Part shown: piece by piece, positions 654-20,980 of the stretch
Numbering within the stretch: the stretch's first letter is position 1
Layout of the letters: each line of letters begins with the position of its first letter
Origin: Vibrio alginolyticus NBRC 15630 = ATCC 17749
GTDB taxonomy: Bacteria; Pseudomonadota; Gammaproteobacteria; Enterobacterales; Vibrionaceae
NCBI RefSeq assembly: GCF_000354175.2
Contig: NC_022349.1
Coordinates: 960,001 to 992,000 of the forward strand
Length of the DNA: 32,000 nucleotides
Direction: 5' to 3'
The notes under the pieces: model-generated
Told to the model about the DNA's origin: nothing
Seen by the model: the letters and a program-made list of their open reading frames with translations, nothing else
Databases searched by the model: none
Position numbers and translations under genes: made by a program

Positions 654-662
654 AATAATCCC

Positions 663-5286: not shown

Positions 5287-5312
5287 TTGATACCCTTTGA
5301 ATCTGACTTTGC

Positions 5313-5862: not shown

Positions 5863-5988
5863 TACTAACGCCCTGTTAAGGGGTGAGCAACGCAATACCA
5901 AAGCCGCCGCATACCACCTTAATCACTAAAACCAACGCATAGTAAAAATGCCACGCGTTGCGAATCCCTCTTGAACAGTTTGTTATAG
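5863..5988 (-). repeat. attC_09 (VCR-like, 126 bp)
   Basis: tactaac...gttatag. Inner stem gcaacgc/gcgttgc. Confidence 0.9.
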
Positions 5989-6526
5989 CTCACTAGCCTG
6001 TTGCGCCATCATAACTTTAAGTTCCTTTGCTTTATTGTCGAAAGCTTCTTGAGTCTTTATTAATTCATCAAGTTTTTGGCGCTTAAAACTCCTGTTTTCA
6101 CGACAATAATCTAGTACATCATCGCGCAATTTGATCAAGTTTCCGAAGTCATCAAACAACTCAGGGAAGTGTAGCTGCAAAATGGTTTGTAGCTTCTGAA
6201 AGTCACCTTTTTCCTGAAGTCGATTTTCAGTAGATAACTTCATTGCATTTTCCGCAGTGTTTGCGCCTTTATAAACGGGAATAAAAACCAAGCACATACC
6301 CTGCAAATCAATTTCCCACTTTTGAAAAAGTAGATGTAGCTCTTCTAATTTTGTTCGCTTAAATTCGATTTTTTTCAGCTCTAGTGTATTTTTGTGCTCA
6401 AGCTTTGATCTTTGGTGATTAACAAAACTTGTAACTATCACGCCTAGTAGAGTACCAAGAACCCCCCAAACTAGCTGTAATTAAAGGAGTGTAATTTAAC
6501 ACCGTTGACTGTACCTCTGATTCCAC
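5983..6526 (-). pseudogene. membrane-anchored coiled-coil protein gene split by a +1 frameshift in a G6 tract
   Basis: The track ORF 5983..6441 (GTG) lacks an RBS. A GTG at 6524-6526 has AGGAG 6 nt upstream and opens a frame that ends 28 codons later. Removing one G from the GGGGGG run (6462-6467, - strand) fuses the two frames into about 180 aa. The fused protein has a TM helix LITASLGVLGTLLGVIVTSFV that spans the junction. Confidence 0.5.
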
Positions 6527-6540
6527 GATTATCTCCTGAG

Positions 6541-6668
6541 CTATAACGCCGCATTAAGGGGTGAACAACGCATTCCACCCAAACTAAACCATTGTGCTGT
6601 AAACACTAAAGCCGATTAAAACCAAAACTGCCAAGCGTTGTGAATCCCTCTTGAATGCTTTGTTAGTT
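6541..6668 (-). repeat. attC_10 (VCR-like, 128 bp)
   Basis: ctataac...gttagtt. Inner stem acaacgc/gcgttgt. Confidence 0.9.
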
Positions 6669-7076
6669 GGTGGAGTTTAACGCGTTCTGAAGACCTTTCC
6701 AGTCTTTGCACCCAAGATAAACATTTTTACCACTAGTCAGTGTTAACTTAAGAGCTTTACTCACAGAAGCATTGTACAGCCAGCCATCTTTTAACATACG
6801 GATCCCTATACCTTGATACAACTTAGTCTCATAAAGTGAAGTCTGTACAATGTCAGACAGTTCCACTTCTTTGCGAAGAAAGCCGAAACCAAAATACCAG
6901 TAAATTTTATTTCCACTGACTCCGACTGTCATAGAGTAAAACAATACAGCTATAACCAAATTGATTAATAATGCAATCACTGCGCTGCTTATGTGGCTAG
7001 ACGTAAATATTATGATCGCGCTTAGGATAAAAAGGAGGTTTAGTAATACTTTATTAACCTCTGTTTGTTTATACAT
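6663..7076 (-). CDS. hypothetical membrane protein (2 TM plus a small C-terminal domain)
   Basis: ORF track gives 6663..7085 (TTG). I prefer ATG 7074-7076 (MYKQTEV) with AAAGGA upstream. TM helices are LLNLLFILSAIIIFTSS and AVIALLINLVIAVLFYSM. Confidence 0.6.
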   Translation of the reverse strand: MYKQTEVNKVLLNLLFILSAIIIFTSSHISSAVIALLINLVIAVLFYSMTVGVSGNKIYWYFGFGFLRKEVELSDIVQTSLYETKLYQGIGIRMLKDGWLYNASVSKALKLTLTSGKNVYLGCKDWKGLQNALNSTN

Positions 7077-7096
7077 AGCTTGCAATCCTTTGAACC

Positions 7097-7224
7097 AACT
7101 AACGCCGCATTAAGGGGTGAACAACGCAAACCACCCGGCCTAAGGCATTGTGCCGTAAACACTAAAGCCAATTCAAACCAAAACTGCCAAGCGTTGTGAA
7201 TCCCTCTTGAATGCTTTGTTAGTT
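7097..7224 (-). repeat. attC_11 (VCR-like, 128 bp)
   Basis: aactaac...gttagtt. Inner stem acaacgc/gcgttgt. Confidence 0.9.
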
Positions 7225-7582
7225 GCCAAACCTAAAGCTTTGATTTGATAGTTAGTTGCCGCTTTGCCAACACTGTCTTTGCGTATTTCGGAAAACTCAA
7301 ATCAGGCGCAGTTTCCAAGCGTCTGTCACTGAAACCACTTGGAACATACAACGCCGTAGAAAACGAGCTAACAACACCAAAAAGCGCCTTTGGGCAAACA
7401 ATGTTACAGAGCTAACTTTCAACATATAAATCGATTTCTGAAATAGAGAATACAACAACAAAAGAAACCAACGCACGATTTTACAAACCCAAATAACTAG
7501 AAATTGAAATACGAAAACCGAGCCAAAAACACACGAACATTAACCCTAAACATTCTGCTTTAGCTGCGTTTTTCTCGTTGGC
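7225..7582. other. ORF-less integron cassette, family A copy 2
   Basis: 358 bp with no ORF of 60 aa or more. Blockwise homologous to 3691..4173. Confidence 0.7.
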
Positions 7583-7708
7583 AACTAACGCCCTGTTAAG
7601 GTGTGAGCAACGCAATACCGATGCCGCCGCATATCACCTTAACCACCATACGCAACGCATAGTAAAAGTGCCACGCGTTGCGAATCACTCTTAAACAGTT
7701 TGTTAGCC
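7583..7708 (-). repeat. attC_12 (VCR-like, 126 bp)
   Basis: aactaac...gttagcc. Inner stem gcaacgc/gcgttgc. Confidence 0.9.
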
Positions 7709-7723
7709 GCTCATTCCCAAAGG

Positions 7724-8026
7724 TTACTGCTTACTCAACAGGAACTTACGCAAATCTCTCTCTGCACGCATAACAAACAGAATAAACACCTTGTCACCGT
7801 CTTGTTTATAGAAAACACGACATGGATTAGCGACAACTTCACGATAACTTAAATGTTCTAGCTCGAGTGGAATACGACCTGACTCTGGGAAAGTTTGTAG
7901 GCGTTCGACTTTGGAGAAGATCGTTTGTACTAACTGCTTTGCAGCTACGATATTTTCAAGTGCGATGTATTCAGCGATATCATTGAGATCAGATAACGCA
8001 GGTTCAGTCCAGATTACTTCAGCCAT
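7724..8026 (-). CDS. type II toxin, RelE/ParE superfamily (ParE-like)
   Basis: 100 aa. It begins MAEVIWTEPALSDLNDIAEYI and ends FILFVMRAERDL, typical of plasmid-stabilisation ParE-like toxins. It overlaps the upstream antitoxin gene by 13 nt. Confidence 0.85.
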   Translation of the reverse strand: MAEVIWTEPALSDLNDIAEYIALENIVAAKQLVQTIFSKVERLQTFPESGRIPLELEHLSYREVVANPCRVFYKQDGDKVFILFVMRAERDLRKFLLSKQ

Positions 8027-8271
8027 TTTGACATTTTGTCCTTGGCTTCATCATGACTTACCACTTTGCCGTCAGCTAGTGCACGCTCACCTCGTGCAAT
8101 ACCCTCAAGGATAGCTAAACGATTTTGCATAAATTCGTAGTCATCAACATCAACTAGATACGCAGATGGCTTACCATGCTCAGTAATTAACACTGGTTCT
8201 TTGGTGTCGTGGAGATCGGCGAGGATCTTAGTTGCTTGACGTTTGAGTGATGTAACTAGTTCTACTTTCAT
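8014..8271 (-). CDS. type II antitoxin, Phd/YefM family
   Basis: 85 aa. Sequence MKVELVTSLKRQATKILADLHDTKEPVLITEHGKPSAYLVDVDDYE matches the Phd/YefM N-terminal fold pattern. It is translationally coupled to the toxin. Confidence 0.85.
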   Translation of the reverse strand: MKVELVTSLKRQATKILADLHDTKEPVLITEHGKPSAYLVDVDDYEFMQNRLAILEGIARGERALADGKVVSHDEAKDKMSKWLK

Positions 8272-8294
8272 GAGAGCTGCTCCAAAGGAATACT

Positions 8295-8335
8295 AAAGTG
8301 ATACTATTCTATCACTTTGAGTATAGCAAGCTCCA
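8295..8335 (-). promoter_or_regulatory. putative TA promoter with operator palindrome
   Basis: On the - strand, TGcTATACT (extended -10, + coordinates about 8320-8328) is followed by a perfect 9-bp inverted repeat AAAGTGATA-N6-TATCACTTT (8295-8318). This sits just upstream of the antitoxin RBS GGAG. Confidence 0.5.
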
Positions 8336-8339
8336 TGAC

Positions 8340-8466
8340 GGCTAACGCCCAATTAAGGCGTGAGCGACGCCACCAAAGAACTTAAACCATTGCGCTGTAA
8401 ACACAAAAGCCGATTCAAACTAAAAATGCTATGCGTTGCGAATCGCTCTTGAATTGTTTGTTATGT
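8340..8466 (-). repeat. attC_13 (VCR-like, 127 bp)
   Basis: ggctaac...gttatgt. Inner stem gcgacgc/gcgttgc (imperfect). Confidence 0.9.
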
Positions 8467-8810
8467 TTTACCACAAACGACTCACTTTCTTGACAAAGAA
8501 CTGCTGTGCTCAAGAAATTGTTCAACTCACATCACACGAGTCAACCAACCATTATGACAAGTGCAACAAATGCAAAGCGCATAATAATTGAGACCTATCA
8601 TCAAAACCAAAGCGACTTTAAGCAAGATAAATTTTCAGAATAAATCCATAATTTCAATGGAAGCAACCCTGAGGTTTGAAGCTCAAAATCGGTTGAGAAA
8701 TCCAAGAATTTAGGCCACCGATATTGAATTTCTGAAACCATGAAGACAACTTATTAGAGTAACCAAAGAAGTAAACCAAAAACTATTTATTGCTTATAAA
8801 TCAATGTGAA
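8467..8810. other. ORF-less integron cassette, family D copy 1
   Basis: 344 bp with no ORF of 60 aa or more. It shares its first ~55 nt (ttttaccacaa..gactt..ttga.aaagaactgct) and later blocks (aagcgacttt.agc) with 19981..20434. Confidence 0.65.
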
Positions 8811-8936
8811 ACATAACGCCTTGCTAAGGTGTGAGCAACGCAATACCTTAGCCTCCGCATAATACCTTAAACACATAAACCGACACATAGTAAAAATGCC
8901 ACGGGTTGCGAATCACTCTTAAGCAACTTGTTATAC
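8811..8936 (-). repeat. attC_14 (VCR-like, 126 bp)
   Basis: acataac...gttatac. Carries the variant gccacgggttgcg. Confidence 0.9.
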
Positions 8937-8990
8937 CGCTTGGTTGAGGCTAAAATGACCAACATAAAAACCACTTAAGAGACCGATTAT

Positions 8991-9239
8991 ATGACCACTA
9001 GAATTTTAGCCGATGTTGCTGCAAGCATTACTGAGTTGAAAGCTAACCCTATGAAAGTTGCAACTAGTGCTTACGGCGAACCTGTTGCTGTATTAAACCG
9101 AAATGAACCAGCATTTTATTGCGTGCCTGCCGAAGCGTACGAAATGATGATGGACAGACTCGAAGATCTGGAACTACTAGCTATCGCTAAAGAGCGTGAA
9201 TCTGAAGAGAGCATTTCGGTAAATATTGATGACCTATAA
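8991..9239 (+). CDS. type II antitoxin, Phd/YefM (StbD/RelB-like)
   Basis: 82 aa. ILADVAASITELKANPMKV...EPVAVLNRNEPAFYCVPAEAYE. Inverted relative to the cassette array. Overlaps the toxin start. Confidence 0.85.
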   Translation: MTTRILADVAASITELKANPMKVATSAYGEPVAVLNRNEPAFYCVPAEAYEMMMDRLEDLELLAIAKERESEESISVNIDDL

Positions 9240-9519
9240 ACTCGACTTTAAAAAGAGTGCACTCAAAGAGTGGAAAAAGCTTGGCTCTACTCTGCAACAA
9301 CAATTTAAGAAAAAGCTAATCGAGCGCTTAGATAACCCACATGTTCCGGCTTCAAAGCTTTCTGGAGCTGACAACATGTATAAAATTAAGTTGCGTCAAT
9401 CGGGCTACCGTCTCGTCTACAAAGTTGAAGACGATGTCATCATTGTAACCGTCTTAGCAGTTGGAAAACGCGAACGTAGCGATGTTTACCGTAAAGCCAT
9501 GAAAAGGTTAGATGATTGA
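9229..9519 (+). CDS. type II toxin, RelE/StbE family
   Basis: ORF track starts at TTG 9226. ATG 9229 gives MTYKLDFKKSALKEWKKL...YRLVYKVEDDVIIVTVLAVGKRERSDVY, the RelE/StbE pattern. It overlaps the antitoxin by 11 nt. Confidence 0.85.
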   Translation: MTYKLDFKKSALKEWKKLGSTLQQQFKKKLIERLDNPHVPASKLSGADNMYKIKLRQSGYRLVYKVEDDVIIVTVLAVGKRERSDVYRKAMKRLDD

Positions 9520-9559
9520 TTGCGGTTGGTGTACCCCACAAAAAGTAGACAGTACATAA

Positions 9560-10342
9560 CTACATACTTTCGTACTCAACTGGGCTGACCTGCCCCAACG
9601 CTGAGTGTCTTCTTCTGCGATTGTAAAATACCTCGATGTATTCGAAGATGCCCATTCGGGCTTCTTCGACAGTTTGATAGTCTTCTGCGTATATCAGTTC
9701 GACTTTCAGTCGACTGTAGAACGACTCCATCACCGCATTATCCCAGCAGTTACCCTGCCGACTCATGCTCGGTACACCTCCATGCTTACGCATGAAGTCT
9801 TGATATTTGTAGGCTCTGTATTGTACACCACGGTCTGAGTGGATAATGACGCCCTTAGGCGGCTTACGTGACTCAAACGCCATTTTTAGAGCGTTAGTGA
9901 TTAGCTCGACGGTCATCGTTGTCCCAAGCGACCAACCCACAATGCGTCTTGAATGCAAGTCCATCACTGTCGCTAAGAAGAGCCAACGGCTCTTCACCCA
10001 GATATACGTAATGTCCGTAACCCATTTCTGATTTGGCGTCTCAGACTCAAAGTCTCTACGCAGTAAATTGTCGGCAACATTCGTCATAGCAGCCACATAA
10101 TTCACGCAGCAGGCATAGCCTGCTTCGTTGAGCTCTTCGGCTATTCGCACTGAGCCGTAACGTGCCCGATATTGGGCAAAGGTACACATGACGAGCTGTT
10201 CAAAGCGCTCTCGCCGCTTTGAACGCTCACTCGGCGTATGATGGCACCACTTATAATAGCCGCCCCGACTCACTTCTAAGGTGCGGCACATTAAGCTAAT
10301 GGAATACTCACCGACATAGCTTTCGATGAACTCGTACTTCAC
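9560..10342 (-). CDS. IS3-family transposase OrfB (DDE/rve core), internally deleted; expressed as an OrfAB fusion by -1 frameshift
   Basis: DDE-type motifs WVTDITYI, IIHSDRGVQY, NAVMESFYSRLKVE. It lacks 23 aa (DIMKEKGIRARNGKGFKYSKDVA region) that are present in copy 2. Confidence 0.85.
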   Translation of the reverse strand: MKYEFIESYVGEYSISLMCRTLEVSRGGYYKWCHHTPSERSKRRERFEQLVMCTFAQYRARYGSVRIAEELNEAGYACCVNYVAAMTNVADNLLRRDFESETPNQKWVTDITYIWVKSRWLFLATVMDLHSRRIVGWSLGTTMTVELITNALKMAFESRKPPKGVIIHSDRGVQYRAYKYQDFMRKHGGVPSMSRQGNCWDNAVMESFYSRLKVELIYAEDYQTVEEARMGIFEYIEVFYNRRRRHSALGQVSPVEYESM

Positions 10343-10647
10343 TCTTGCTGCTTCGCGAAGTACGCCGAGACCTTTTTTAGGAATTCCATTTCATCTTTGA
10401 GTCGCTTGTTCTCGCGCCTTAGCGCCCGAAGCTCTTCGGACTCTTTCTTCGAGTAATCGACACCGTCTAAGGTGTTAAACTGTTTATCAGATAGGCGTGT
10501 GAACTGGCGCTTCCAGTTTCGGATCTGCTGGGCACTGATGCCCAGCTCCTTGGCAACGGAAACGGCTGTTCGGCCAGGAAGACTGGCCAAGCGGACTGCT
10601 TCTTTGCGGAACTCTTCGGTGTACGCTGGATTACGATGTTTAGCCAT
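10339..10647 (-). CDS. IS3-family transposase OrfA (HTH plus leucine zipper)
   Basis: 102 aa. HTH is VSVAKELGISAQQIRNWKRQF. Coiled coil is LRALRRENKRLKDEMEFLKK. The protein is identical in all three copies. Confidence 0.9.
   Translation of the reverse strand: MAKHRNPAYTEEFRKEAVRLASLPGRTAVSVAKELGISAQQIRNWKRQFTRLSDKQFNTLDGVDYSKKESEELRALRRENKRLKDEMEFLKKVSAYFAKQQE
10372..10378 (-). promoter_or_regulatory. programmed -1 ribosomal frameshift heptamer A AAA AAG (IS copy 1)
   Basis: - strand reads CTA AAA AAG GTC in the orfA frame. A -1 slip continues into the orfB frame (KKGLGVLREAARVKYEF...). This is the classic IS3-family arrangement. Confidence 0.8.
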
Positions 10648-10715
10648 AAATCACCTCTCAATTAGACCCTAGATCTAACTTAGTAAAGTGTCTACTAAAC
10701 GTGGGGTACTCGGCG

Positions 10716-10841
10716 GTATAACGCCCTGTTAAGGGGTGAGCAACGCAATACCAATGCCGCCGCATACCACCTTAATCACTTAAACCAACGCATAGTGAAG
10801 ATGCCACGCGTTGCGAATCCCTCTTGAACAGTTTGTTAACT
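10716..10841 (-). repeat. attC_15 (VCR-like, 126 bp)
   Basis: gtataac...gttaact. Identical to attC_39 from its second base onward. Confidence 0.9.
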
Positions 10842-11182
10842 GAGCGCCTTTCAGTTTTCGCCGATTTTTCAGCCACTTTCGCCAAAGCTCGTTTTGCTAA
10901 TTAATGATTAGCAAAGCTAACTCAAATATGTGTTTAACAAAAAAATTACCGTTGATCTTTAGTTTGAAATGCGTCTCACAACACCATACTTCGGCGATGT
11001 AAGTGCGCCGAACTAATCGCGAACGCCTTATATTATTAGAAGGCTTTATGCCGCCTTTCACATCAGTAAGCTTAAGTACCAAACTGAAATTAGTCGCATT
11101 ACCTCAGCTAAGGAAACCGACCGAACACGCTAAACCTCCGAACCTAGAAACCGTATCAATGTGCTTTCGTATTTTCTGTGCC
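10842..11182. other. ORF-less integron cassette, family C copy 1
   Basis: 341 bp. It holds only two overlapping 61-aa ORFs without RBS. Contains the perfect hairpin tttgctaat-taatg-attagcaaa (10893-10915). Identical to 30345..30685. Confidence 0.7.
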
Positions 11183-11308
11183 AGTTAACGCCCTGTTAAG
11201 GTGTGAGCAACACAATACCGATGCTCCCGCATGCCACCTTAAACACTAGACGCAACGCATAGCAAAAATGCCACGCGTTGCGAATCACTCTTAAACAGTT
11301 TGTTATGT
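11183..11308 (-). repeat. attC_16 (VCR-like, 126 bp)
   Basis: agttaac...gttatgt. Confidence 0.9.
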
Positions 11309-11734
11309 GTTTGCGTGCTGAAGTTGAAAATGCAACTGAGACATTAGTGATTGATATACTTTCATAGTAAATACTTGCAAATTTTCCATACAAAACTCAC
11401 CACCAATAATTGGATGCAGATTCCAACCTAAGCATTCGTCTTGTTTTGGTTGTAGCCCGTGTTCGAGCGCCAAGTCATACCAACTAGTTAAAAAGACATT
11501 ATCACACCAATCTTGTGATTTATTCATTTTATTGTACTCATGAAAGTCCGAAGCAATTGTTTCATAGGTACCATCTAAAACCGATAACAATGAAATTGAG
11601 CCATCCACTTCACCAAATAGCCAGTCACCCATGATGGTTAGATACAAAGGTTTCCCTGTAGGATTAAGCAACCATTTCCACTGAGGTAACAAGGTATCTA
11701 TTTCTACGTCCGAGACTTCCCAAATAAACTGCAT
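11303..11734 (-). CDS. DUF1851 / Tdi1-like (T6SS immunity-type) protein, tentative
   Basis: ORF track gives 11303..11803 and runs into the IS end. I trimmed the start to ATG 11732-11734 (MQFIWEVSDVEID). The pattern WKWLLNPTGKPLYLTIMGDWLFGEVDGSISLL recalls DUF1851. This is from memory and not searched. Confidence 0.55.
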   Translation of the reverse strand: MQFIWEVSDVEIDTLLPQWKWLLNPTGKPLYLTIMGDWLFGEVDGSISLLSVLDGTYETIASDFHEYNKMNKSQDWCDNVFLTSWYDLALEHGLQPKQDECLGWNLHPIIGGEFCMENLQVFTMKVYQSLMSQLHFQLQHANT

Positions 11735-11805
11735 TTTTATCTTTCTCACTCTGTTTAGAAACCCATTGACACTGGTGTACCCCACAAAAAGTAGACAGTA
11801 CATAA

Positions 11806-12657
11806 CTACATACTTTCGTACTCAACTGGGCTGACGTGCCCCAACGCTGAGTGTCTTCTTCTGCGATTGTAAAATACCTCGATGTATTCGAAGATGCCCA
11901 TTCGGGCTTCTTCGAGGGTTTGGTAGTCTTCTGCGTATATCAGTTCGACTTTCAGTCGACTGTAGAACGACTCCATCACCGCATTATCCCAACAGTTGCC
12001 CTGCCGACTCATGCTCGGTACACCTCCATGCTTGCGCATGAAGTCTTGATATTTATATGCTCTGTATTGTACACCACGGTCCGAGTGGATAATGACGCCT
12101 TTAGGCGACTTACGTGACTCAAACGCCATTTTTAGGGCATTGGTGATGAGCTCGACGGTCATCGTTGTCCCTAACGACCAACCCACAATACGCCTTGAAT
12201 GCAAGTCCATCACTGTCGCTAAGAAGAGCCAACGGCTCTTCACCCAGATATACGTGATGTCCGTAACCCACTTCTGATTTGGCGTCTCAGACTCAAAGTC
12301 TCTTCGCAGTAAATTGTCGGCAACATTCGTCATAGCAGCCACATCCTTGCTGTATTTAAACCCTTTACCATTACGTGCCCTGATACCTTTTTCCTTCATG
12401 ATATCAGCCACATAATTCACGCAGCAGGCATAGCCTGCTTCGTTGAGCTCTTCGGCTATTCGCACTGAGCCGTAACGTGCCCGATATTGGGAAAAGGTAC
12501 ACATGACGAGCTGTTCAAAGCGCTCTCGCCGCTTTGAACGCTCACTCGGCGTATGATGGCACCACTTATAATAGCCGCCCCGACTCACTTCTAAGGTGCG
12601 GCACATTAAGCTAATGGAATACTCACCGACATAGCTTTCGATGAACTCGTACTTCAC
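11806..12657 (-). CDS. IS3-family transposase OrfB (full length, DDE/rve)
   Basis: 283 aa with the same DDE motifs. Includes the segment DIMKEKGIRARNGKGFKYSKDV that is absent from copies 1 and 3. Confidence 0.9.
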   Translation of the reverse strand: MKYEFIESYVGEYSISLMCRTLEVSRGGYYKWCHHTPSERSKRRERFEQLVMCTFSQYRARYGSVRIAEELNEAGYACCVNYVADIMKEKGIRARNGKGFKYSKDVAAMTNVADNLLRRDFESETPNQKWVTDITYIWVKSRWLFLATVMDLHSRRIVGWSLGTTMTVELITNALKMAFESRKSPKGVIIHSDRGVQYRAYKYQDFMRKHGGVPSMSRQGNCWDNAVMESFYSRLKVELIYAEDYQTLEEARMGIFEYIEVFYNRRRRHSALGHVSPVEYESM

Positions 12658-12962
12658 TCTTGCTGCTTCGCGAAGTACGCCGAGACCTTTTTTAGGAATT
12701 CCATTTCATCTTTGAGTCGCTTGTTCTCGCGCCTTAGCGCCCGAAGCTCTTCGGACTCTTTCTTCGAGTAATCGACACCGTCTAAGGTGTTAAACTGTTT
12801 ATCAGATAGGCGTGTGAACTGGCGCTTCCAGTTTCGGATCTGCTGGGCACTGATGCCCAGCTCCTTGGCAACGGAAACGGCTGTTCGGCCAGGAAGACTG
12901 GCCAAGCGGACTGCTTCTTTGCGGAACTCTTCGGTGTACGCTGGATTACGATGTTTAGCCAT
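12654..12962 (-). CDS. IS3-family transposase OrfA
   Basis: 102 aa, identical to copy 1 OrfA. Confidence 0.9.
   Translation of the reverse strand: MAKHRNPAYTEEFRKEAVRLASLPGRTAVSVAKELGISAQQIRNWKRQFTRLSDKQFNTLDGVDYSKKESEELRALRRENKRLKDEMEFLKKVSAYFAKQQE
12687..12693 (-). promoter_or_regulatory. programmed -1 frameshift heptamer A AAA AAG (IS copy 2)
   Basis: Same context as copy 1. Confidence 0.8.
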
Positions 12963-13030
12963 AAATCACCTCTCAATTAGACCCTAGATCTAACTTAGTA
13001 AAGTGTCTACTAAACGTGGGGTACTCGGGA

Positions 13031-13157
13031 ACATAACGCCGCGTTAAGTAGTGAGCAACATTTCCACCTAACCTAAACCATTGTGCCGTAAACACTAAAA
13101 TAGAAGCAAACCGAAAATGCCGAGCGTTGCGAATCTGTCTTAAACGCTTTGTTATGT
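13031..13157 (-). repeat. attC_17 (attC of the qnrVC cassette, 127 bp)
   Basis: acataac...gttatgt. Variant inner box gccgagcgttgcgaat. Confidence 0.9.
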
Positions 13158-13176
13158 GCGTAGCCGAATCTTGCGC

Positions 13177-13833
13177 TTAGTCAGGAACAATGATTACCCC
13201 TAATTGCTCCAGTAACTGCTCCTGTTGCCACGAGCATATTTTTACACCTGTTAGATCAATCTTTCGAGGGTCTAAACCATAAAGCTCTGAATGACTTAAA
13301 TCACAACCTTGTACTCTAAACTGTTCCCAGCAATCTTCCGAAAAAACGCCACGACTTAAATCTGACTCTTTAAATGAAGCGCCTCGAAGATTTGCACCAA
13401 TCCATCTATTTTCGAACAGGTCACATTTTTCAATAAGCTGCTGCTCAAAATTGGCATAGGATAAGTTACAACCTGTTATGTATGCAGAGCAAAAGTACAT
13501 TTTATTCGAAACCTGATTTACAAAACTAACTTGGCTAAAATTTGCTCCTTTAAGATCACAATCTCTCAGTTCAATACCAAAGCAATTTGCCCCCTTAAAA
13601 TGGGACATTGAAAGCTGACAGTTTTTAAATGAAGCATCTCGAAGATCAGCATAAGAAAAATCGCACCCTTCCAGTGCCCCCTGCTCTATGAAAGTACAGT
13701 TAATGAACTGTGTATCTCGAAGGTTTGAGCGCGTAAAATTACAATGTATAAAAGTACAATTGCTAAAGATATGTTCTTGCAAGTCCTGATGTGAGAAGTT
13801 CACTTGATTATATAATTGCTTTGATTTTTCCAT
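13177..13833 (-). CDS. qnrVC: QnrVC-type pentapeptide-repeat quinolone-resistance protein (218 aa)
   Basis: ORF track gives 13177..13872. The start ATG 13831-13833 yields MEKSKQLYNQVNFSHQDLQEHIFSNCTFIHCNF... and ends ...QLGVIIVPD. I recognise this as the QnrVC family at its canonical 218-aa length. The sequence is tandem pentapeptide repeats throughout. RBS is GGAG. Confidence 0.9.
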   Translation of the reverse strand: MEKSKQLYNQVNFSHQDLQEHIFSNCTFIHCNFTRSNLRDTQFINCTFIEQGALEGCDFSYADLRDASFKNCQLSMSHFKGANCFGIELRDCDLKGANFSQVSFVNQVSNKMYFCSAYITGCNLSYANFEQQLIEKCDLFENRWIGANLRGASFKESDLSRGVFSEDCWEQFRVQGCDLSHSELYGLDPRKIDLTGVKICSWQQEQLLEQLGVIIVPD

Positions 13834-14078
13834 GCTGTAGCTCCAAAAAACATTTGATTTGAAGACTACCATTTACCTGAAAGTTCTCAACAAAAACAAA
13901 ACCAATAAAAACAGACACTTAAAAAGCCCCATTTTAGCCAAAATAAGGCACCAAAACGGCATTTTAAAGGGGGCTAATTCAAAACAACCGATGCGGCCAG
14001 CTAGAAAAAAGTTTTAGTGAATCTGGCGGGTTTTAGAGAAAGCACTGGTGTACCCCACAAAAAGTAGACAGTACATAA

Positions 14079-14861
14079 CTACATACTTTCGTACTCAACT
14101 GGGCTGACCTGCCCCAACGCTGAGTGTCTTCTTCTGCGATTGTAAAATACCTCGATGTATTCGAAGATGCCCATTCGGGCTTCTTCGACAGTTTGATAGT
14201 CTTCTGCGTATATCAGTTCGACTTTCAGTCGACTGTAGAACGACTCCATCACCGCATTATCCCAGCAGTTACCCTGCCGACTCATGCTCGGTACACCTCC
14301 ATGCTTACGCATGAAGTCTTGATATTTGTAGGCTCTGTATTGTACACCACGGTCTGAGTGGATAATGACGCCCTTAGGCGGCTTACGTGACTCAAACGCC
14401 ATTTTTAGAGCGTTAGTGATTAGCTCGACGGTCATCGTTGTCCCAAGCGACCAACCCACAATGCGTCTTGAATGCAAGTCCATCACTGTCGCTAAGAAGA
14501 GCCAACGGCTCTTCACCCAGATATACGTAATGTCCGTAACCCATTTCTGATTTGGCGTCTCAGACTCAAAGTCTCTACGCAGTAAATTGTCGGCAACATT
14601 CGTCATAGCAGCCACATAATTCACACAGCAGGCATAGCCTGCTTCGTTTAGCTCTTCTGCAATTCGCACAGAGCCGTAACGTGCCCGATATTGGGCAAAG
14701 GTACACATGACGAGCTGTTCAAAGCGCTCTCGCCGCTTTGAACGCTCACTCGGCGCATGATGACGCCACTTGTAGTAACCACCTCGACTCACTTCTAACG
14801 TACGGCACATTAAGCTAATCGAGTACTCGCCTGTATAGCTTTCAATGAACTCGTACTTCAC
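14079..14861 (-). CDS. IS3-family transposase OrfB (internally deleted variant)
   Basis: 260 aa with the same deletion junction NYVA|AMTNV as copy 1. Confidence 0.85.
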   Translation of the reverse strand: MKYEFIESYTGEYSISLMCRTLEVSRGGYYKWRHHAPSERSKRRERFEQLVMCTFAQYRARYGSVRIAEELNEAGYACCVNYVAAMTNVADNLLRRDFESETPNQKWVTDITYIWVKSRWLFLATVMDLHSRRIVGWSLGTTMTVELITNALKMAFESRKPPKGVIIHSDRGVQYRAYKYQDFMRKHGGVPSMSRQGNCWDNAVMESFYSRLKVELIYAEDYQTVEEARMGIFEYIEVFYNRRRRHSALGQVSPVEYESM

Positions 14862-15166
14862 TCTTGCTGCTTCGCGAAGTACGCCGAGACCTTTTTTAGG
14901 AATTCCATTTCATCTTTGAGCCGCTTGTTCTCGCGCCTTAGCGCTCGAAGCTCTTCAGACTCTTTCTTCGAATAATCGACACCGTCTAAAGTGTTAAACT
15001 GTTTATCAGATAGGCGTGTGAACTGGCGCTTCCAGTTCCGGATCTGCTGGGCACTGATGCCCAGCTCCTTAGCAACGGAGACGGCTGTTCGGCCAGGAAG
15101 ACTGGCCAAGCGAACTGCTTCTTTACGGAACTCTTCGGTGTACGCTGGATTACGATGTTTAGCCAT
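14858..15166 (-). CDS. IS3-family transposase OrfA
   Basis: 102 aa. The protein is identical to copies 1 and 2 despite nucleotide differences. Confidence 0.9.
   Translation of the reverse strand: MAKHRNPAYTEEFRKEAVRLASLPGRTAVSVAKELGISAQQIRNWKRQFTRLSDKQFNTLDGVDYSKKESEELRALRRENKRLKDEMEFLKKVSAYFAKQQE
14891..14897 (-). promoter_or_regulatory. programmed -1 frameshift heptamer A AAA AAG (IS copy 3)
   Basis: Same context as copy 1. Confidence 0.8.
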
Positions 15167-15234
15167 AAATCACCTCTCAATTAGACCCTAGATCTAACTT
15201 AGTAAAGTGTCTACTAAACGTGGGGTACTCGGGC

Positions 15235-15360
15235 ACATAACGCCCAATTAAGGTGTGAAGCACGCAATACCGAAGCCCCCGCATACCACCTTAATCACTA
15301 AATTCAACGCATAGCAAAAATGCCACGCGTTGCGAATCACTCTTGAACAGTTTATTATGT
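15235..15360 (-). repeat. attC_18 (VCR-like, 126 bp, R'' point-mutated)
   Basis: acataac...attatgt. R'' reads ACATAAT instead of ACATAAC (tttattatgt where other copies have tttgttatgt). Confidence 0.85.
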
Positions 15361-15373
15361 GCGTGGTTGAAAC

Positions 15374-15790
15374 CTACTCTACACTTGGCTCCGGTAAAAC
15401 TGGTGGTGTACTGTCCATATAAGTTAAAAAGTTTTCCCATAACTCGTGCGTTCTTTGCTTAGTTAACTTAGTTTTGCACGATATCGCCATAACTCCACGA
15501 ATAGTTCCATCACGCCATTGCGTATAAACCGAATCACAGTGAGAGGACATATATGCTTGCCAATCCTGTTGAGCAAGCTTAATTGCTGCGATCAGTTCTG
15601 GGTCATGAGAGTTGTGCTCAAAGCTAGTGTTTAGATATTTGTCTAATTTAACTTGTGCTGACTCTAGTTCAATAGCAGTACATTGGTTTATCTCGATTGT
15701 GGTCATCGCATTATTACAGTCAATGGACTCTTCTTCAGCAAGAGCACCAAATGAAAGACTAGCTAATATGATGATTAGACACTTATTCAT
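15374..15790 (-). CDS. secreted DUF1311 / LprI-like (lysozyme-inhibitor-type) protein
   Basis: 138 aa. Signal peptide MNKCLIIILASLSFGALA. DUF1311-like spacing: MTTIEINQCTAIELESAQVKLDKYLN...AQQDWQAYMSSHCD...ISCKTKLTKQRTHEL. The family call is from memory. Confidence 0.7.
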   Translation of the reverse strand: MNKCLIIILASLSFGALAEEESIDCNNAMTTIEINQCTAIELESAQVKLDKYLNTSFEHNSHDPELIAAIKLAQQDWQAYMSSHCDSVYTQWRDGTIRGVMAISCKTKLTKQRTHELWENFLTYMDSTPPVLPEPSVE

Positions 15791-15806
15791 CGTTTTCTCC
15801 TAAAGC

Positions 15807-15932
15807 ACATAACGCCCAATTAAGGGGTGAGTAACGCAACACCAATGCCGCCGCAAACCACCTTAATCACTAAAATTAACGCATAGTAAAAATGCCACGC
15901 GTTATGAATCCCTCTTGAATTGTTTGTTAGTA
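15807..15932 (-). repeat. attC_19 (VCR-like, 126 bp)
   Basis: acataac...gttagta. Inner stem taacgc/gcgtta. Confidence 0.9.
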
Positions 15933-16355
15933 CGCTGCCCTTGAAGCCTTGGGCATACCCCAAGATGTTGAAATATAGCACGAAATTTATGGATTAAAAC
16001 ACTGAAACCAAACGGACAACGGCCAAATTGAAAACTAGCTTCAAGACGTAAGTTGGCTAAAAGAAAAACATGCCAAACTGCTCTTTTTCACCGCTTTCAC
16101 ATTAGCAAAGGATACGCTCACCAAACTCAACCGCAGCGACAATGAAGCTACATTTTTGATGCTGAAACCAACAGCATCAAAGAAGCCGCGCCAAAGAAAT
16201 AGCCCAAAAGTTAGAAACCGTAAACGATGAAATCAAAGCAAAAACTTCGCATCTAGTGCCACCGGAGCGAACGTGAAAAGCACATTTGAACAGGTGTAAA
16301 GTTAGGAAAAGAAACCAATAAACACAGAAACTTCTAACCTTTGATACCAATTCAG
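15933..16355. other. ORF-less integron cassette, family B copy 3
   Basis: 423 bp, alignable with B1 and B2. The hairpin arm GGCAC is changed to AGCAC here. Confidence 0.75.
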
Positions 16356-16481
16356 TACTAACGCCCTGTTAAGGTGTGAGCAACGCAATACAAGAGCTGC
16401 CGCAAACCACCTTAAACACCAAACGCAACGCATAGTAAAAATGCCACGCGTTGCGAATCACTCTTAAACAGTTTGTTAACT
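16356..16481 (-). repeat. attC_20 (VCR-like, 126 bp)
   Basis: tactaac...gttaact. Confidence 0.9.
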
Positions 16482-16483
16482 AA

Positions 16484-17389
16484 CTACGATTTGTAAATAT
16501 CTAAAAAGCTATAGCTCGGCTCGGGCATATTACGGGTGTAGAACACTTCTGGAACATAATCCGTTTCAAACCCTAAGCGAAAACCGTATTTCTGGTAAGT
16601 AAGCTTTGCCAGTGCCAGTAACGGCATAGCAAAATAGCCTACACGCTCTTCCTTTAACTTTTTTTGACTCCAATACTTGTGGTGCCCTTTGACCGCTTCA
16701 TACATCGCTTGTTGATATTCCGCTTCACCACAACCTGATTTGTTTAGAACTTTTGTCATCACATTAATCGTTGGCAAATCGACAAGGTTAGCGTGTTCAA
16801 AGGCTAAACCCTCAAGATACTCAGGCGTACTCACATCAATAAACTTCTGAATTAACGACTTAACGTCGCCAGATTTTATTCCGAGCATGACCATTTGGAG
16901 CTCAAAGAAGGTACGAGACCGAACATTATACCACTCAGTGTTTGGGTGGTCGGCTAAGTTGGCAAGGTACTCGATGTCACTCACTTGCTCACAGAATAAA
17001 GATAGCCAACTTAAATAGGTCAAATATCGCGCGCCATCGAGAGCATTGTATTCCTCTTTCTTTGCTACTAGAGTCACCTCCGCTTTGGGGAGCACCACCG
17101 AAATCGTCTCACCATTACTCAATAGCTGTGACTGCACTAATTTAATATCAAAGTACTGATGCATATCCATTGCTCTAAGACTGGATTCTATGTCTCCAGC
17201 CTTGTGGTATAAACTACTGGTTAGATAAAGGCCTGCAAGACTCACGCGATATAAATCGACTTTCCCGATTTTAGAGTAAAGCTCAAAGTCATCTAGCAGT
17301 AGTTTACATTTCATCCCGTATGGATTCGAAAGCCTTTTTAGGTGGTCTGCATGGCATGGCATTGGTTTAAAGTGTTCTTTTGATGTCAT
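16484..17389 (-). CDS. hypothetical all-alpha protein (possibly polymorphic-toxin immunity type)
   Basis: ORF track gives 16484..17464, and its first 25 codons translate attC_21 (RCSHLNRAL). I trimmed the start to ATG 17387-17389 (MTSKEHFKPM), giving 301 aa. No firm motif. The C-terminal GYFAMPLLALAKLTYQKYGF recalls Imm-type families, with low confidence. Confidence 0.6.
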   Translation of the reverse strand: MTSKEHFKPMPCHADHLKRLSNPYGMKCKLLLDDFELYSKIGKVDLYRVSLAGLYLTSSLYHKAGDIESSLRAMDMHQYFDIKLVQSQLLSNGETISVVLPKAEVTLVAKKEEYNALDGARYLTYLSWLSLFCEQVSDIEYLANLADHPNTEWYNVRSRTFFELQMVMLGIKSGDVKSLIQKFIDVSTPEYLEGLAFEHANLVDLPTINVMTKVLNKSGCGEAEYQQAMYEAVKGHHKYWSQKKLKEERVGYFAMPLLALAKLTYQKYGFRLGFETDYVPEVFYTRNMPEPSYSFLDIYKS

Positions 17390-17431
17390 ATAAACATTTC
17401 TCTTTAATTTATAAACTGGATCGAAGGAGTT

Positions 17432-17557
17432 AGTTAACGCCCTGTTAAGGTGTGAGCAACGCAATACCGATGCCTCCGCATACCACCTTAAACACTAAAC
17501 GCAACGCATAGTAAAAATGCCACGCGTTGCGAATCACTCTTAAACAGTTTGTTATGT
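17432..17557 (-). repeat. attC_21 (VCR-like, 126 bp)
   Basis: agttaac...gttatgt. Confidence 0.9.
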
Positions 17558-17959
17558 TCGTAGCCTCGTGTGCCATCTAGTTACGTCCGTGAGCCTACTT
17601 TCATAGACCTTATTCACTGTTGCTATATGAGCTATACAGTCAAAATTAAACAACACTACACGTTTTTTAATAGTTTTTACTTTATCCGTATCTACTTCAA
17701 CTGTTAAAGAAGCTTTCAATAATGTTGATAAATCGATATTTTCCTTTATCGCTTCACTTCTAAACCAAGCTGATAGCTCATTGGAAATATACAGTTCTAG
17801 CTCGCCAGCAATCGAATGTGAAACTGTTCCATCGAGCAAGTTAATACACAAGACACCATTAGGCAGCTCAGATAACATTTCGAGGTCTTCACCCATCCGC
17901 CAACCAACAAACATCTTGGGTAGAACTTCAACGTAGTGATTAATCCTTTTTAGTCCCAT
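17552..17959 (-). CDS. hypothetical protein (135 aa)
   Basis: ORF track gives 17552..18004. I trimmed the start to ATG 17957-17959 (MGLKRINHY) with AGAGGGA upstream. The stop lies inside R''. Confidence 0.55.
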   Translation of the reverse strand: MGLKRINHYVEVLPKMFVGWRMGEDLEMLSELPNGVLCINLLDGTVSHSIAGELELYISNELSAWFRSEAIKENIDLSTLLKASLTVEVDTDKVKTIKKRVVLFNFDCIAHIATVNKVYESRLTDVTRWHTRLRT

Positions 17960-17971
17960 AATCCCTCTAGA

Positions 17972-18097
17972 ACATAACGCCCAATTAAGGTGTGAAGCAC
18001 GCAACCACTACACCCAATTTGACCACCATAAACACTGAACTTAACCCAAACCAAAAATGCCAAGCGTGCTGAATCACTCTTAAATTGTTTGTTAAGT
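17972..18097 (-). repeat. attC_22 (VCR-like, 126 bp)
   Basis: acataac...gttaagt. Inner stem agcacgc/gcgtgct. Confidence 0.9.
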
Positions 18098-18102
18098 TTC
18101 TT

Positions 18103-18795
18103 TTACCGATGAACAAACTGTTCCCTATAGTGCCCTAACTCCAAGCATTTTGAGCATTCTTCTTCACTCTCACGGTAATAGACTCTTTTATTTCCTATGA
18201 TCATTTGCACACGTTCAACAACGCTGTCCCCCTTACCTTTGAGCTGAACAACTTGTAAATCAGGCTTACAGCAACGAAGAATCCCTTGTAATAGCTCTAC
18301 TGTTGAGGCTTGTACTTTAGGTCCGAGTATCAATTTTTTCACTGCAATCGGTACATATGTGTCCGATGTGATACAACGGAACTCCTTCTCATATTTCCAG
18401 CTCGAATCCTTATACTTTAGAATTTCTATCGCTTTATCTGTTGTTAATTGATTTTTAGAAACTTTTGGCTTGTTGCGATAGGAAACTTTAACAACTTCCG
18501 AACTTGGTAGCAGTTCAAACTCAATGGCACAACCACGTCCCCCATCTGCATAATGTGCCCACATTAATGTGTTTGAGTCGTCTGGAGTAAAACAACATAC
18601 TCGCAGATCTTCGAGTATGTTCTTCCACGTTTCTTCTAGGTCATCGGGGATTGTACCATCAACCTTAATGACTCCCTCCATAGGGTCATTTAGCTCACTA
18701 TACTTACTTGCATACAATCTTTCTCGAAGCAATATGTCCAATACGAACTCAAAATTACTTAATGATTTGTATTTGTAGAATGTATTTTTGTTCAT
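18103..18795 (-). CDS. DUF2971-like protein
   Basis: 230 aa. FYKYKSLSNFEFVLDILLRERLYASKYSELNDPMEG ... CCFTPDDSNTLMWAHYADGGRGCAIEF matches my recollection of the DUF2971 signature (..NDP.E ... lMWshYa..hkG.ci.f). Confidence 0.7.
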   Translation of the reverse strand: MNKNTFYKYKSLSNFEFVLDILLRERLYASKYSELNDPMEGVIKVDGTIPDDLEETWKNILEDLRVCCFTPDDSNTLMWAHYADGGRGCAIEFELLPSSEVVKVSYRNKPKVSKNQLTTDKAIEILKYKDSSWKYEKEFRCITSDTYVPIAVKKLILGPKVQASTVELLQGILRCCKPDLQVVQLKGKGDSVVERVQMIIGNKRVYYRESEEECSKCLELGHYREQFVHR

Positions 18796-18812
18796 TTGAA
18801 CTACCTATTGAA

Positions 18813-18938
18813 ACTTAACGCCCTGTTAAGGGGTGAGCAACGCAATACATAAGCCGCCGCATACAACCTTAAACACTTAAACCAACGCATAGTAAAAATG
18901 CCACGCGTTGCGAATCCCTCTTAAACAGTTTGTTAGCT
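18813..18938 (-). repeat. attC_23 (VCR-like, 126 bp)
   Basis: acttaac...gttagct. Confidence 0.9.
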
Positions 18939-18946
18939 GTTTCGTA

Positions 18947-19261
18947 TTAGGAGACTGGACTATTAACGTAAAAATAACCAACAAGACCAACCGTGCCGTA
19001 TAAAAGTGCCTTCAGAGAAGCTAGCCAGTTACTTTTAATATTAAGTAAAGTCACCACAATTGAGGATACCATCGCAAAACACCACATCAAGACAACTAAA
19101 CAAGCAAACAATAAATCTATAACGTCACCGAACCCATAAGGTTCTCCGGGTGAGACCGCTATATGCCCATAAATTTGAGATTTATATAGTAGCCCAGAGA
19201 AAGCAAAAAAATGGACTAAAACAATACTGAACGCTAATAACTTATTAAATCTTGCTTCCAT
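18947..19261 (-). CDS. small integral membrane protein (3 TM)
   Basis: 104 aa. ATG start with GGAGAG 9 nt upstream. Three hydrophobic helices. Confidence 0.6.
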   Translation of the reverse strand: MEARFNKLLAFSIVLVHFFAFSGLLYKSQIYGHIAVSPGEPYGFGDVIDLLFACLVVLMWCFAMVSSIVVTLLNIKSNWLASLKALLYGTVGLVGYFYVNSPVS

Positions 19262-19295
19262 TTAGTTTCACTCTCCAATACCACATTGCACAAAC

Positions 19296-19421
19296 AGCTA
19301 ACGCCCTGTTAAGGTGTGAGCAACGCAATACCGAAGCCACTGCATACCACCTTAAACACTAAAACCAACGCATAGTAAAAATGCCACGCGTTGCGAATCA
19401 CTCTTAAACAGTTTGTTATAG
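19296..19421 (-). repeat. attC_24 (VCR-like, 126 bp)
   Basis: agctaac...gttatag. Confidence 0.9.
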
Positions 19422-19832
19422 CGCTTTGCCGTTTACAAGTGACCAATGATGAGGCATTAATTCTCGTATAGTCTTGAAAACCAATGCATTCCCTGAAGTC
19501 GTAATTGCTGCTTTGACATCCCCACCCCAATGGACGAGGCGCTCTTGGCAAACTCCGCATGGTGACAAAATTAGAAATTCATCGTTCTCGCTCTCACGAC
19601 ACAGGCATAATGAGTGGGTCACTCGCTCATTGAGTTTGTGAGCCTCTAAATACGCTCCCACCTCCATGCATAGTGAAAGAGCATCGTTTTTAGTATCAGG
19701 AGCAATGCTTGTTAATATTTTTCCTGACTCTGTTCTAACAGCCGCAGCTCCACCCCAACCAGAAGGATATCGCATATTTACTAGTTCTATTGCTGCTTGA
19801 TAGAGCTCTTTTTCGATATTATCCATGACCAT
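19416..19832 (-). CDS. cytidine deaminase-fold protein (blasticidin-S deaminase-like)
   Basis: 138 aa. Zinc-binding motifs C-M-E (LSLCMEVGA) and PCGVCQE at CDA-family spacing. The stop lies inside R''. Confidence 0.8.
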   Translation of the reverse strand: MVMDNIEKELYQAAIELVNMRYPSGWGGAAAVRTESGKILTSIAPDTKNDALSLCMEVGAYLEAHKLNERVTHSLCLCRESENDEFLILSPCGVCQERLVHWGGDVKAAITTSGNALVFKTIRELMPHHWSLVNGKAL

Positions 19833-19854
19833 CCATATTCAATTTTATCGTGCG

Positions 19855-20434: not shown

Positions 20435-20560
20435 ACATAACGCCCTGTTAAGGGGTGAGCAACGCAATACAAAAGCCGCCGCATACCACCTTAACCACTA
20501 AACGCAACGCATATTGAAAATGCCACGCGTTGCGAATCCCTCTTGAACAGTTTGTTATGT
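20435..20560 (-). repeat. attC_26 (VCR-like, 126 bp)
   Basis: acataac...gttatgt. Identical to attC_36. Confidence 0.9.
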
Positions 20561-20568
20561 GCGAACTT

Positions 20569-20841
20569 CTAGCTTGTAGATGACTGCTCAGCAACACTAA
20601 CTTTAGGCTCTTTCTCTGGCGTCGACCATTTGATGATTGCTCTAAGGTTCATTGAGAAAAAGATGATATTTGCAATTATCATTGCCACACTGCCAGTAAG
20701 ATAACCAACTGCTACCCAACTAGTGTTACCGCACATCATTAAGATGAAACCGATTTTGTTCTTATTTCCAATTTGCCAAATTGCAAGAAACGTAAGTACC
20801 ATTGCAACCCAGTCGATTCCATAGTACTGAAAATATTCCAT
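20569..20841 (-). CDS. small 3-TM membrane protein (PnuC/SemiSWEET-sized), copy 1
   Basis: ORF track gives 20569..20856. I trimmed the start to ATG 20839-20841 (MEYFQYYGIDW) with GGAGGA upstream, giving 90 aa. Three TM helices and an acidic/Ser-rich tail. Confidence 0.65.
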   Translation of the reverse strand: MEYFQYYGIDWVAMVLTFLAIWQIGNKNKIGFILMMCGNTSWVAVGYLTGSVAMIIANIIFFSMNLRAIIKWSTPEKEPKVSVAEQSSTS

Positions 20842-20854
20842 TTTTCCTCCAAGC

Positions 20855-20980
20855 ACATAACGCCCGCTTAAGTGGTGAGCAACGCAATGCCGAAGCTACC
20901 GCATTCCACCTTAAACACTAAACGCAACGCATGGTAAAAATGCCACGCGTTGCGAATCCGTCTTGAAGCGTTTGTTATAT
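20855..20980 (-). repeat. attC_27 (VCR-like, 126 bp)
   Basis: acataac...gttatat. Confidence 0.9.

Follow-up and report, generated by a model that had tools for sequence, protein, structure and literature searches.

Insertion of an IS3-family element at cassette boundaries around qnrVC10 in an integron array of Vibrio alginolyticus

The stretch of DNA analysed here (the window; 32,000 nucleotides, positions 960,001 to 992,000 of contig NC_022349.1 of Vibrio alginolyticus NBRC 15630 = ATCC 17749) is an array of integron gene cassettes in which the quinolone-resistance gene qnrVC10 lies between two directly repeated copies of an IS3-family insertion sequence (IS), with a third copy elsewhere in the array. 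From comparison with copies in other genomes we consider it likely that this IS is sequence-specific, integrating 4 nt after the motif GGCGTTAK in one orientation. The 'bracket' around qnrVC10 is very likely a by-product of such site-specific insertion and of recombination between IS copies, and not a composite transposon that has moved. The main interest is in a DDE transposon that appears to home, to the exact nucleotide, to the boundary of attC site and cassette while leaving the recombination site undamaged. The qnrVC10 gene itself is ordinary, and there is no sign in the data that the IS pair has moved it.

Target specificity of the insertion sequence

The copies compared with those in the window come from ten chromosomal places in six other Vibrio genomes, four plasmid-collection records, deleted variants, a V. 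vulnificus variant and a Thalassolituus oleivorans relative, together with a further 15 metagenome contigs picked by the 26-mer at the left IS end. The three window copies, the ten chromosomal copies and the four plasmid-collection copies are all at the same offset and in the same orientation. GGCGTTAK is present at positions -12 to -5 in 24 of 25 distinct left flanks, the remaining one having CTCGTTAG, and at that offset in 13 of the 15 metagenome copies, with one shifted by 1 nt and one having GGCGTATT. Overall, GGCGTTAK is followed at exactly 4 nt by the IS in approximately 37 of 40 independent copies, always in the orientation of the cassette, and the four bases separating the motif from the IS are those that form the target-site duplication.

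Vibrio-type attC sites have this motif as their conserved 3′ end (it consists of the R′ core and the two G's and C ahead of it), and it occurs 37 times in the window (1.6 expected), each time on the minus strand at the end of an attC; three of these are occupied. Insertion takes place 8 nt beyond the crossover used by IntI, or 2 nt outside the 7-bp R′ box; the attC sequence is therefore kept, and the IS forms the 5′ portion of the cassette that follows. Every cassette boundary would be a potential target for the IS, and hence there would be copies on both sides of qnrVC10. Four or five of the targets carry GGCGTTAK yet are not Vibrio-type attC sites, and it therefore appears that the sequence is recognised instead of the folded attC. 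The relative in T. oleivorans (CP017810.1; 60% OrfB identity) follows the same rule, with GGCGTTAT or CTCGTTAG followed by a 4-bp duplication. A by-eye comparison of the target motif with the IS ends, for similarity of the kind used in IS911-type end targeting, gave nothing convincing.

Two other observations concern the distribution of the IS. Some of the sites occupied by the 60%-identical relatives in T. oleivorans and marine metagenomes are unlike attC. In HG992751.1 (positions 1-3690 of the stretch examined), the IS is in the first cassette, beside an integron-integrase-like gene (Phage_integrase and SAM_4 domains), and therefore it can occupy the promoter-proximal position of an array.

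Attraction to attC sites is a property of several mobile elements. The insertion sequences of the IS1111-attC group insert inside attC, without target duplication, and group IIC-attC introns are also attC-targeting. Members of the IS1111-attC group (IS110/IS1111 family) are described as targeting attC sites in the work of Tetu & Holmes (2008) and Post & Hall (2009), as cited in PMC3971601 and PMC11089894, and rely on a DEDD transposase that is directed by a non-coding seeker RNA (PMC11187229). Like the IS described here, they invade integrons at a fixed attC position and in one orientation. However, our IS encodes an rve-type DDE protein of the IS3-family OrfAB kind and not a DEDD transposase, has a 4-bp duplication, and is situated 2 nt beyond the R′ box, so that its position, although fixed, is just outside an attC that stays whole; it also relies, apparently, on an 8-bp DNA motif that works outside attC sites as well. 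Judged by these features, it is not a member of the IS1111-attC group and works like it in outcome, and it would represent a second, mechanistically different way for an IS to colonise integrons beside that of the seeker-RNA-guided elements. A precedent is provided by IS1397 and ISKpn1, IS3-family elements specific for the palindromic units (PU) of bacterial interspersed mosaic elements (BIMEs). These share with our IS a strict specificity for a short sequence that is highly repeated in the genome; in enterobacteria they are directed to the loop of REP/PU palindromes (REP, repetitive extragenic palindrome), whereas the target of the window IS is the integron cassette boundary.

A full-text literature search on attC-targeting IS3-family elements, qnrVC10 and the names of Vibrio ISs recovered no description of such targeting, although ISfinder lay outside that search and prior knowledge is possible; that the targeting is also undescribed is a possibility we hold at somewhat short of probable. 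We similarly advance, as a tentative proposal, that these elements form an undescribed IS3-family clade (in Vibrio, with the 60%-identical relatives in Thalassolituus and marine metagenomes) that is a dedicated parasite of cassette boundaries. Its DDE transposase would read GGCGTTAK and leave the attC functional, the integrase would carry the IS along with the next cassette, direct repeats would drive cassette deletions, and segments between copies would share the homing. If so, a segment between two copies, such as that with qnrVC10, would home to other integrons that have attC sites ending in GGCGTTAK. The targeting accounts for co-oriented ISs at cassette starts in Harveyi-clade integrons, and offers a compact, testable example of an IS3-family transposase with sequence-specific targeting.

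Insertion and recombination of the three copies

Assignment of the IS to the IS3 family is supported by matches to NCBIfam NF033516, with scores of 334 bits (orfB) and 52 bits (orfA), and to the Pfam domains HTH_Tnp_1, HTH_21 and rve, the last being the DDE catalytic domain. A slippery A6G sequence, CTAAAAAAG, is located within orfA, the -1 frame leads into orfB, and an annotation of a fused 380-aa product exists. The left IS end is CCGAG and the right end is ...CA, and the inverted repeats match only from position 5 on (GTACCCCAC); a 4-bp duplication is present in 14 of 20 evaluable copies. Copy 2 in the window has the A6G motif for frameshifting, its orfB is full-length and aligns with the IS3 profile without a break, and it differs from the element in HG992751.1 by 4 nt. 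Copies 1 and 3 have an in-frame 69-bp deletion in orfB, bordered by the repeat ATGTGGCTG, and the HTH_21 match is gone. The element is active, as CP129934.1 has three copies that are 100% identical and are individually flanked by perfect duplications.

The three window copies are direct repeats, all on the minus strand (Table 1), and their flanks are informative about how they arrived. Copy 3 is placed after TTATGTGC, 8 nt beyond the crossover (between G and TT) of the upstream attC, and the window reads GTTATGTGC-IS-GTGCTTTCTC, whereas in uninterrupted qnrVC cassettes GTTATGTGC is followed directly by TTTCTC. Because the GTGC on both sides matches the uninterrupted cassette, copy 3 was inserted alone, and this comparison shows entry into the qnrVC10 cassette by what would be simple transposition. 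Copy 2 begins 8 nt beyond the crossover of the qnrVC attC, i.e. inside the next cassette, and its two flanks differ. The right flank, GTGT, is what the Tdi1-like cassette has at its native start (GTTAT GTGT CAATGGG; GTTATGTGTCAATGGG), as found in eight other arrays, and so this side is a normal insertion site. Since the left flank (GTTC) does not match it, copy 2 is a hybrid of two ISs. The distribution of single-nucleotide polymorphisms is mosaic: copies 1 and 3 differ at 32 sites, all at positions 108-608 and none after, and copies 1 and 2 at 24 sites, 23 of which are at positions 656-1124. Taken together, the flanks and polymorphisms show copy 2 to be a hybrid with a left flank from a different insertion. 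That flank would come from an insertion in a cassette natively starting TTATGTTC, and in the most economical account homologous recombination of direct IS repeats would have removed whatever separated the qnrVC attC from the Tdi1-like cassette.

Two other explanations for the flanks were considered. One is that the left flank of copy 2 acquired two substitutions, which is less likely given the mosaic polymorphisms and the frequency of mismatched flanks in complete genomes. The other is a duplication of 3 bp, with which the outer flanks of the putative composite of copies 2 and 3 would match (GTG/GTG); it is not compatible with a fourth base that matches in 14 of 14 copies with duplications, including both of those in the window.

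Matching duplications are missing in five of ten sampled copies in other Vibrio chromosomes, which suggests that recombination between ISs, and hence cassette loss, may be frequent in these integrons. All eight of eight copies in metagenome contigs also have mismatched flanks, and these probably result from chimeric assembly across the IS repeat. The presence of ISs in chromosomal integrons and their role in rearranging them are already known, and homologous recombination between IS3-family copies in the V. cholerae chromosomal integron has been shown experimentally (PMC11023631). As in the window, the V. cholerae N16961 copies (PMC11023631) are in cassettes, are without target duplications, and recombine to rearrange the array; however, they are in coding sequences and in opposite orientations and give inversions, whereas the window copies are at cassette boundaries, are direct repeats, and would give deletions. 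The IS copies would in this way supply repeated homology that prunes cassette arrays.

The IS may also be carried as part of a cassette. A unit comprising TTATACCG, the deleted form of the IS, ACCG, and the ParE/Phd genes with their attC recurs with 100% identity over 1,910 bp in three contexts that differ in the attC upstream. Two of the contexts are in one genome (the second copy is outside the window), and homology ends exactly at the attC cores. This fits with an IS-loaded ParE/Phd cassette having been moved or duplicated by the integrase. By analogy, the 2.2-kb IS::qnrVC10 cassette could still be a substrate for excision by IntI. When the copy 3 form of OrfB was looked up as an exact protein, it was found only in the LprI-IS-qnrVC10 context, with no moved IS::qnrVC10.

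An earlier note, made from the sequence of the window alone, had described this arrangement, and its coordinates and structural statements are confirmed. It placed copy 3 at 8 nt into the 5′ end of the qnrVC cassette, which agrees with the GTGC duplication and the uninterrupted cassettes, and copy 2 immediately beyond the qnrVC attC, where it starts 8 nt past the crossover. The proposal that copy 2 alone has a full-length transposase gene is borne out by its intact 283-aa orfB and by the absence of 69 bp from copies 1 and 3. The note had also proposed that an IntI-excised qnrVC cassette would carry copy 3 with it, and the IS is formally within the cassette, with the IS::ParE/Phd unit as a plausible analogue.

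Table 1. Features of the window in the vicinity of qnrVC10 and the three IS copies
Feature	Position	Strand	Remarks
attC of upstream LprI-like cassette	15235..15368	minus	ends GGCGTTAT 15244-15237 (GGCGTTAK match); crossover (G, TT) between 15241 and 15240
Left GTGC of copy 3 target-site duplication	15233..15236	minus	uninterrupted cassettes have GTTATGTGC then TTTCTC
IS copy 3, 1187 bp	14046..15232	minus	flanks GTGC / GTGC; orfA 14858-15166, orfB 14079-14861 (260 aa); ends CCGAGTACCCCAC... (left) and ...GTGGGGTACACCA (right)
Right GTGC of copy 3 duplication	14042..14045	minus	native cassette bases
qnrVC cassette leader	13834..14041	minus	conserved in qnrVC1-, qnrVC6- and qnrVC10-type cassettes
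PqnrVC promoter	-35 TTGAGA 13885-13890, -10 TAGTCT 13863-13868	minus	29 nt before ATG
qnrVC10 coding sequence, 218 aa + stop	13177..13833	minus	NCBIfam NF000421 match, identity to WP_017822040.1
attC of qnrVC cassette	about 13031..13157	minus	R″ ACATAAC ... R′ GTTATGT; GGCGTTAT at 13033-13040, crossover G at 13037
IS copy 2, full-length 1256 bp	11773..13028	minus	orfA 12654-12962 (102 aa), orfB 11806-12657 (283 aa); flanks GTTC 13029-13032 (left) and GTGT 11769-11772 (right); no duplication
Tdi1-like gene (type VI secretion system (T6SS) immunity, C-terminal domain)	11303..11734	minus	Pfam PF08906; copy 2 in 5′ end of cassette
IS copy 1, 1187 bp	9527..10713	minus	flanks ACCG / ACCG (10714-10717, 9523-9526)
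ParE/Phd toxin-antitoxin genes	8991-9519	plus	copy 1 sits 8 nt inside their cassette

The qnrVC10 cassette and its flanking copies

The qnrVC10 cassette is an ordinary, complete and self-promoted gene cassette, and both gene and cassette are already known. Its protein product matches NCBIfam NF000421 over residues 1-218 of 218 (499.3 bits; cut-off 460), as well as Pfam Pentapeptide repeats, and has no differences from QnrVC10 of plasmid pVb1762 (WP_017822040.1) and two from QnrVC6 (T34K, N71D). Another allele, qnrVC4, gives an 8-fold rise in minimum inhibitory concentration (PMC13638679). With the IS included, the cassette extends from 13037 to 15240, and has its own attC and a leader of 216 nt, made up of 8 nt ahead of the IS and 208 nt past the duplicated GTGC. 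A stretch of 1,015 bp (14045 to 13031) corresponds to the canonical qnrVC cassette, being 99.4% identical to the qnrVC10 cassette of pVb1762, with ~97% identity to qnrVC6 cassettes and ~94% to the qnrVC1 cassettes on 111 plasmids. This unit behaves as a gene cassette: it is found behind and before different cassettes in at least seven contexts, with homology breaking at GTTA. The same attC is present behind qnrVC10 in at least seven contexts with different downstream cassettes, and the IS-free cassette is also found behind at least six other neighbours. The published PqnrVC promoter, which is 29 bp upstream of the ATG and has 8 of 12 consensus bases according to the summary of Fonseca & Vicente (2012) given in PMC8876359, corresponds to TTGAGA-N16-TAGTCT at 13890-13863, and is invariant in all of the aligned cassettes. 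The qnrVC1 cassette, as portrayed in the same summary (Fonseca & Vicente 2012; PMC8876359), similarly has a 216-nt leader and a promoter 29 bp before the ATG. It is also like the window cassette in having an attC of the Vibrio chromosomal-integron type, with 94% identity over 1,015 bp; the window cassette differs in its allele (VC10), in being chromosomal, and in the interruption of its first 8 nt by an IS.

These data agree with the earlier note in several respects. Its 218-aa QnrVC-type gene belongs within the QnrVC family, and the comparison it had proposed for naming the allele returns a protein 100% identical to QnrVC10. It had also described a normal cassette with its own attC and a leader of ~210 bp, which we find to be at ~13031-13157 and to be 216 nt long, respectively; and the internal promoter it anticipated is recognisable at the position given for PqnrVC in the account in PMC8876359. 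The note further saw a composite-transposon architecture, and this stands as far as the architecture goes: there are two IS copies with intact outer ends, a passenger, and a full transposase gene as a source of transposase. The outer flanks, however, do not match (GTGC and GTGT), and the junction of IS and qnrVC is found in one array context only. Its suggestion that the window is a snapshot of qnrVC escaping from the chromosome is not supported, in that copy 3 arrived alone, copy 2 is a hybrid, and the junction is absent from the plasmids and metagenomes searched. The plasmid search that it had named as a way of refuting the escape was run, and with the IS-qnrVC junction on 0 of 72,556 plasmids this interpretation fails on present data.

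The junction was looked for in three ways. A 301-bp probe was compared with PLSDB, in which none of the 72,556 plasmids covers both halves; the exact 25-mer across the junction has no matches in the contigs of the metagenome collection; and among 37 genome loci with qnrVC relatives there is none with the IS beside the gene. The IS itself is present in only five entries of the plasmid collection, all from Vibrio. In CP150864.1 an IS3-family gene immediately precedes qnrVC10; this was rejected as an instance, the gene belonging to an unrelated element in the preceding cassette, with the start of the qnrVC cassette intact.

A useful comparison is with ISVba1-qnrVC10-ISVba1 in V. alginolyticus plasmid pVb1762 (NZ_OK146920; PMC10434038), where the 99.4%-identical cassette is situated between two copies of ISVba1, an ISAs1-family element. 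As in the window, there is a direct pair of ISs around a qnrVC10 gene encoding the identical protein. However, the IS is of a different family, the location is a plasmid, and what is captured is a piece of an array, such that mobilisation out of a chromosome did actually happen. The segment between the ISVba1 copies (4684-8469 of the stretch examined) is a slice of a chromosomal-type array, in which the qnrVC10 cassette is preceded by the 3′ portion of an attC and followed by a TIR-domain cassette that is truncated.

Several considerations weigh against site-specific insertion and IS recombination as we have described them. Sequence comparison is the sole basis for what is said of transposition, choice of target, excision and expression. 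The ~40 IS copies sampled are from at least 1,300 index blocks, and the sampling favours long contigs. The left IS end begins with CC, compared with the TG usual in the IS3 family. The mismatched duplications in metagenomes may be chimeras, and only complete genomes count as evidence for recombination. The three identical junctions of IS and toxin-antitoxin cassette could in principle be independent site-specific insertions into copies of one cassette, although this is less parsimonious because all three carry the identical variant with the 69-bp deletion.

We have considered three other explanations for the IS copies and their positions. That clustering in integrons is due to chance, or that arrays are a neutral landing pad in which an IS with no target preference is merely harmless, gains some plausibility from the tolerance of integron arrays for ISs, with those of V. 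cholerae being within cassette coding sequences (PMC11023631). Selection for harmless sites cannot, however, fix a position to the single nucleotide, and a single offset and orientation in ~37 of 40 independent copies, including non-attC sites and another genus, has in effect already refuted this idea. A composite transposon or escape intermediate, in which 11773-15232 moves as a unit by means of the copy 2 transposase as the earlier note proposed, is more plausible than that and still very unlikely. Both outer ends are intact (the left of copy 3 and the right of copy 2), copy 2 encodes an apparently complete OrfA/OrfAB, other genomes show activity of the full-length element, and pVb1762 illustrates that a pair of ISs (ISVba1) can capture the qnrVC10 cassette (PMC10434038). 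Yet copy 3 has a duplication of its own and the outer flanks are GTGC and GTGT, so that arrival of the whole as a composite is contradicted. The OrfB variant in copy 3 is confined to LprI-IS-qnrVC10, and the counts given above for the junction (0 of 72,556 plasmids, no metagenome matches), for the IS itself (five plasmid records) and for adjacency to qnrVC relatives (0 of 37 loci) all point away from movement of the unit. Moreover, the IS-free qnrVC10 cassette is already mobile as a cassette, having at least seven different downstream neighbours. With respect to surveillance of resistance, an IS 'bracket' around a cassette in such arrays is not, by itself, proof of a composite transposon.

The third explanation is that copy 3 raises transcription of qnrVC10, by read-through or from an outward promoter, and that its insertion was selected for quinolone tolerance; this we regard as unlikely, if somewhat less so than the composite transposon. 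The IS is co-oriented with qnrVC10 and ends 212 nt ahead of the ATG, and no significant RNA structure that would block read-through is predicted in the leader (fold z = +0.5). Terminator-like hairpins are weak (five found, 2.2 expected). A scan for consensus promoters on the minus strand from 12900 to 15400 found none, which counts only weakly against an outward promoter since the validated PqnrVC, with 8 of 12 consensus bases, escapes the scan as well. This promoter of the cassette itself is intact and invariant, and on the account in PMC8876359 it suffices in other contexts; qnrVC10 would still be driven mainly from it. The position of the IS is also dictated by the motif and not by the gene that follows, as the same IS precedes the Tdi1-like cassette and an oppositely oriented toxin-antitoxin cassette.

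The surrounding cassette array

The window as a whole is a cassette array, with a repeat of ~125-140 nt present in 30-40 copies on a single strand and short genes on the minus strand. The attC repeats in the window were grouped into families D1-D4, and the attC of the upstream LprI-like cassette is a member. The segment from 7177 to 19833 (12,657 bp), within which all three IS copies are located, is 100% identical to CP014045.1 and UAVI01000015.1, and a third assembly, CP196677.1, is annotated with the same order of genes; given this agreement, an assembly artefact is ruled out. CP014045.1 is chromosome 1 of V. alginolyticus FDAARGOS_114 (PMC7216594), and the window is part of the sedentary chromosomal integron of V. 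alginolyticus (chromosome 1).

Several cassettes near qnrVC10 encode immunity-type proteins, including Tdi1_C (11303-11734), an LprI lysozyme-inhibitor-like protein (15374-15790) and Imm49 (16484-17464), all on the minus strand, and the neighbourhood is rich in functions of inter-bacterial competition. There are also whole-cassette duplications in the array, at 10717-11306 and 30220-30809 (98.5% identity), 20435-20977 and 28564-29105 (95.6%), and 25789-26265 and 31523-32000 (94.4%). We note that a group of short minus-strand open reading frames (ORFs) with products ending ...NAWHF..AL.LVFKV.CGGIG.ALLTP (e.g. 11196-11393, 15820-15981, 17445-17576 and 17985-18116) are translations of the attC repeats. 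The same ORFs are labelled 'DUF3265 domain-containing protein' in plasmid records, and they are almost certainly not genes.

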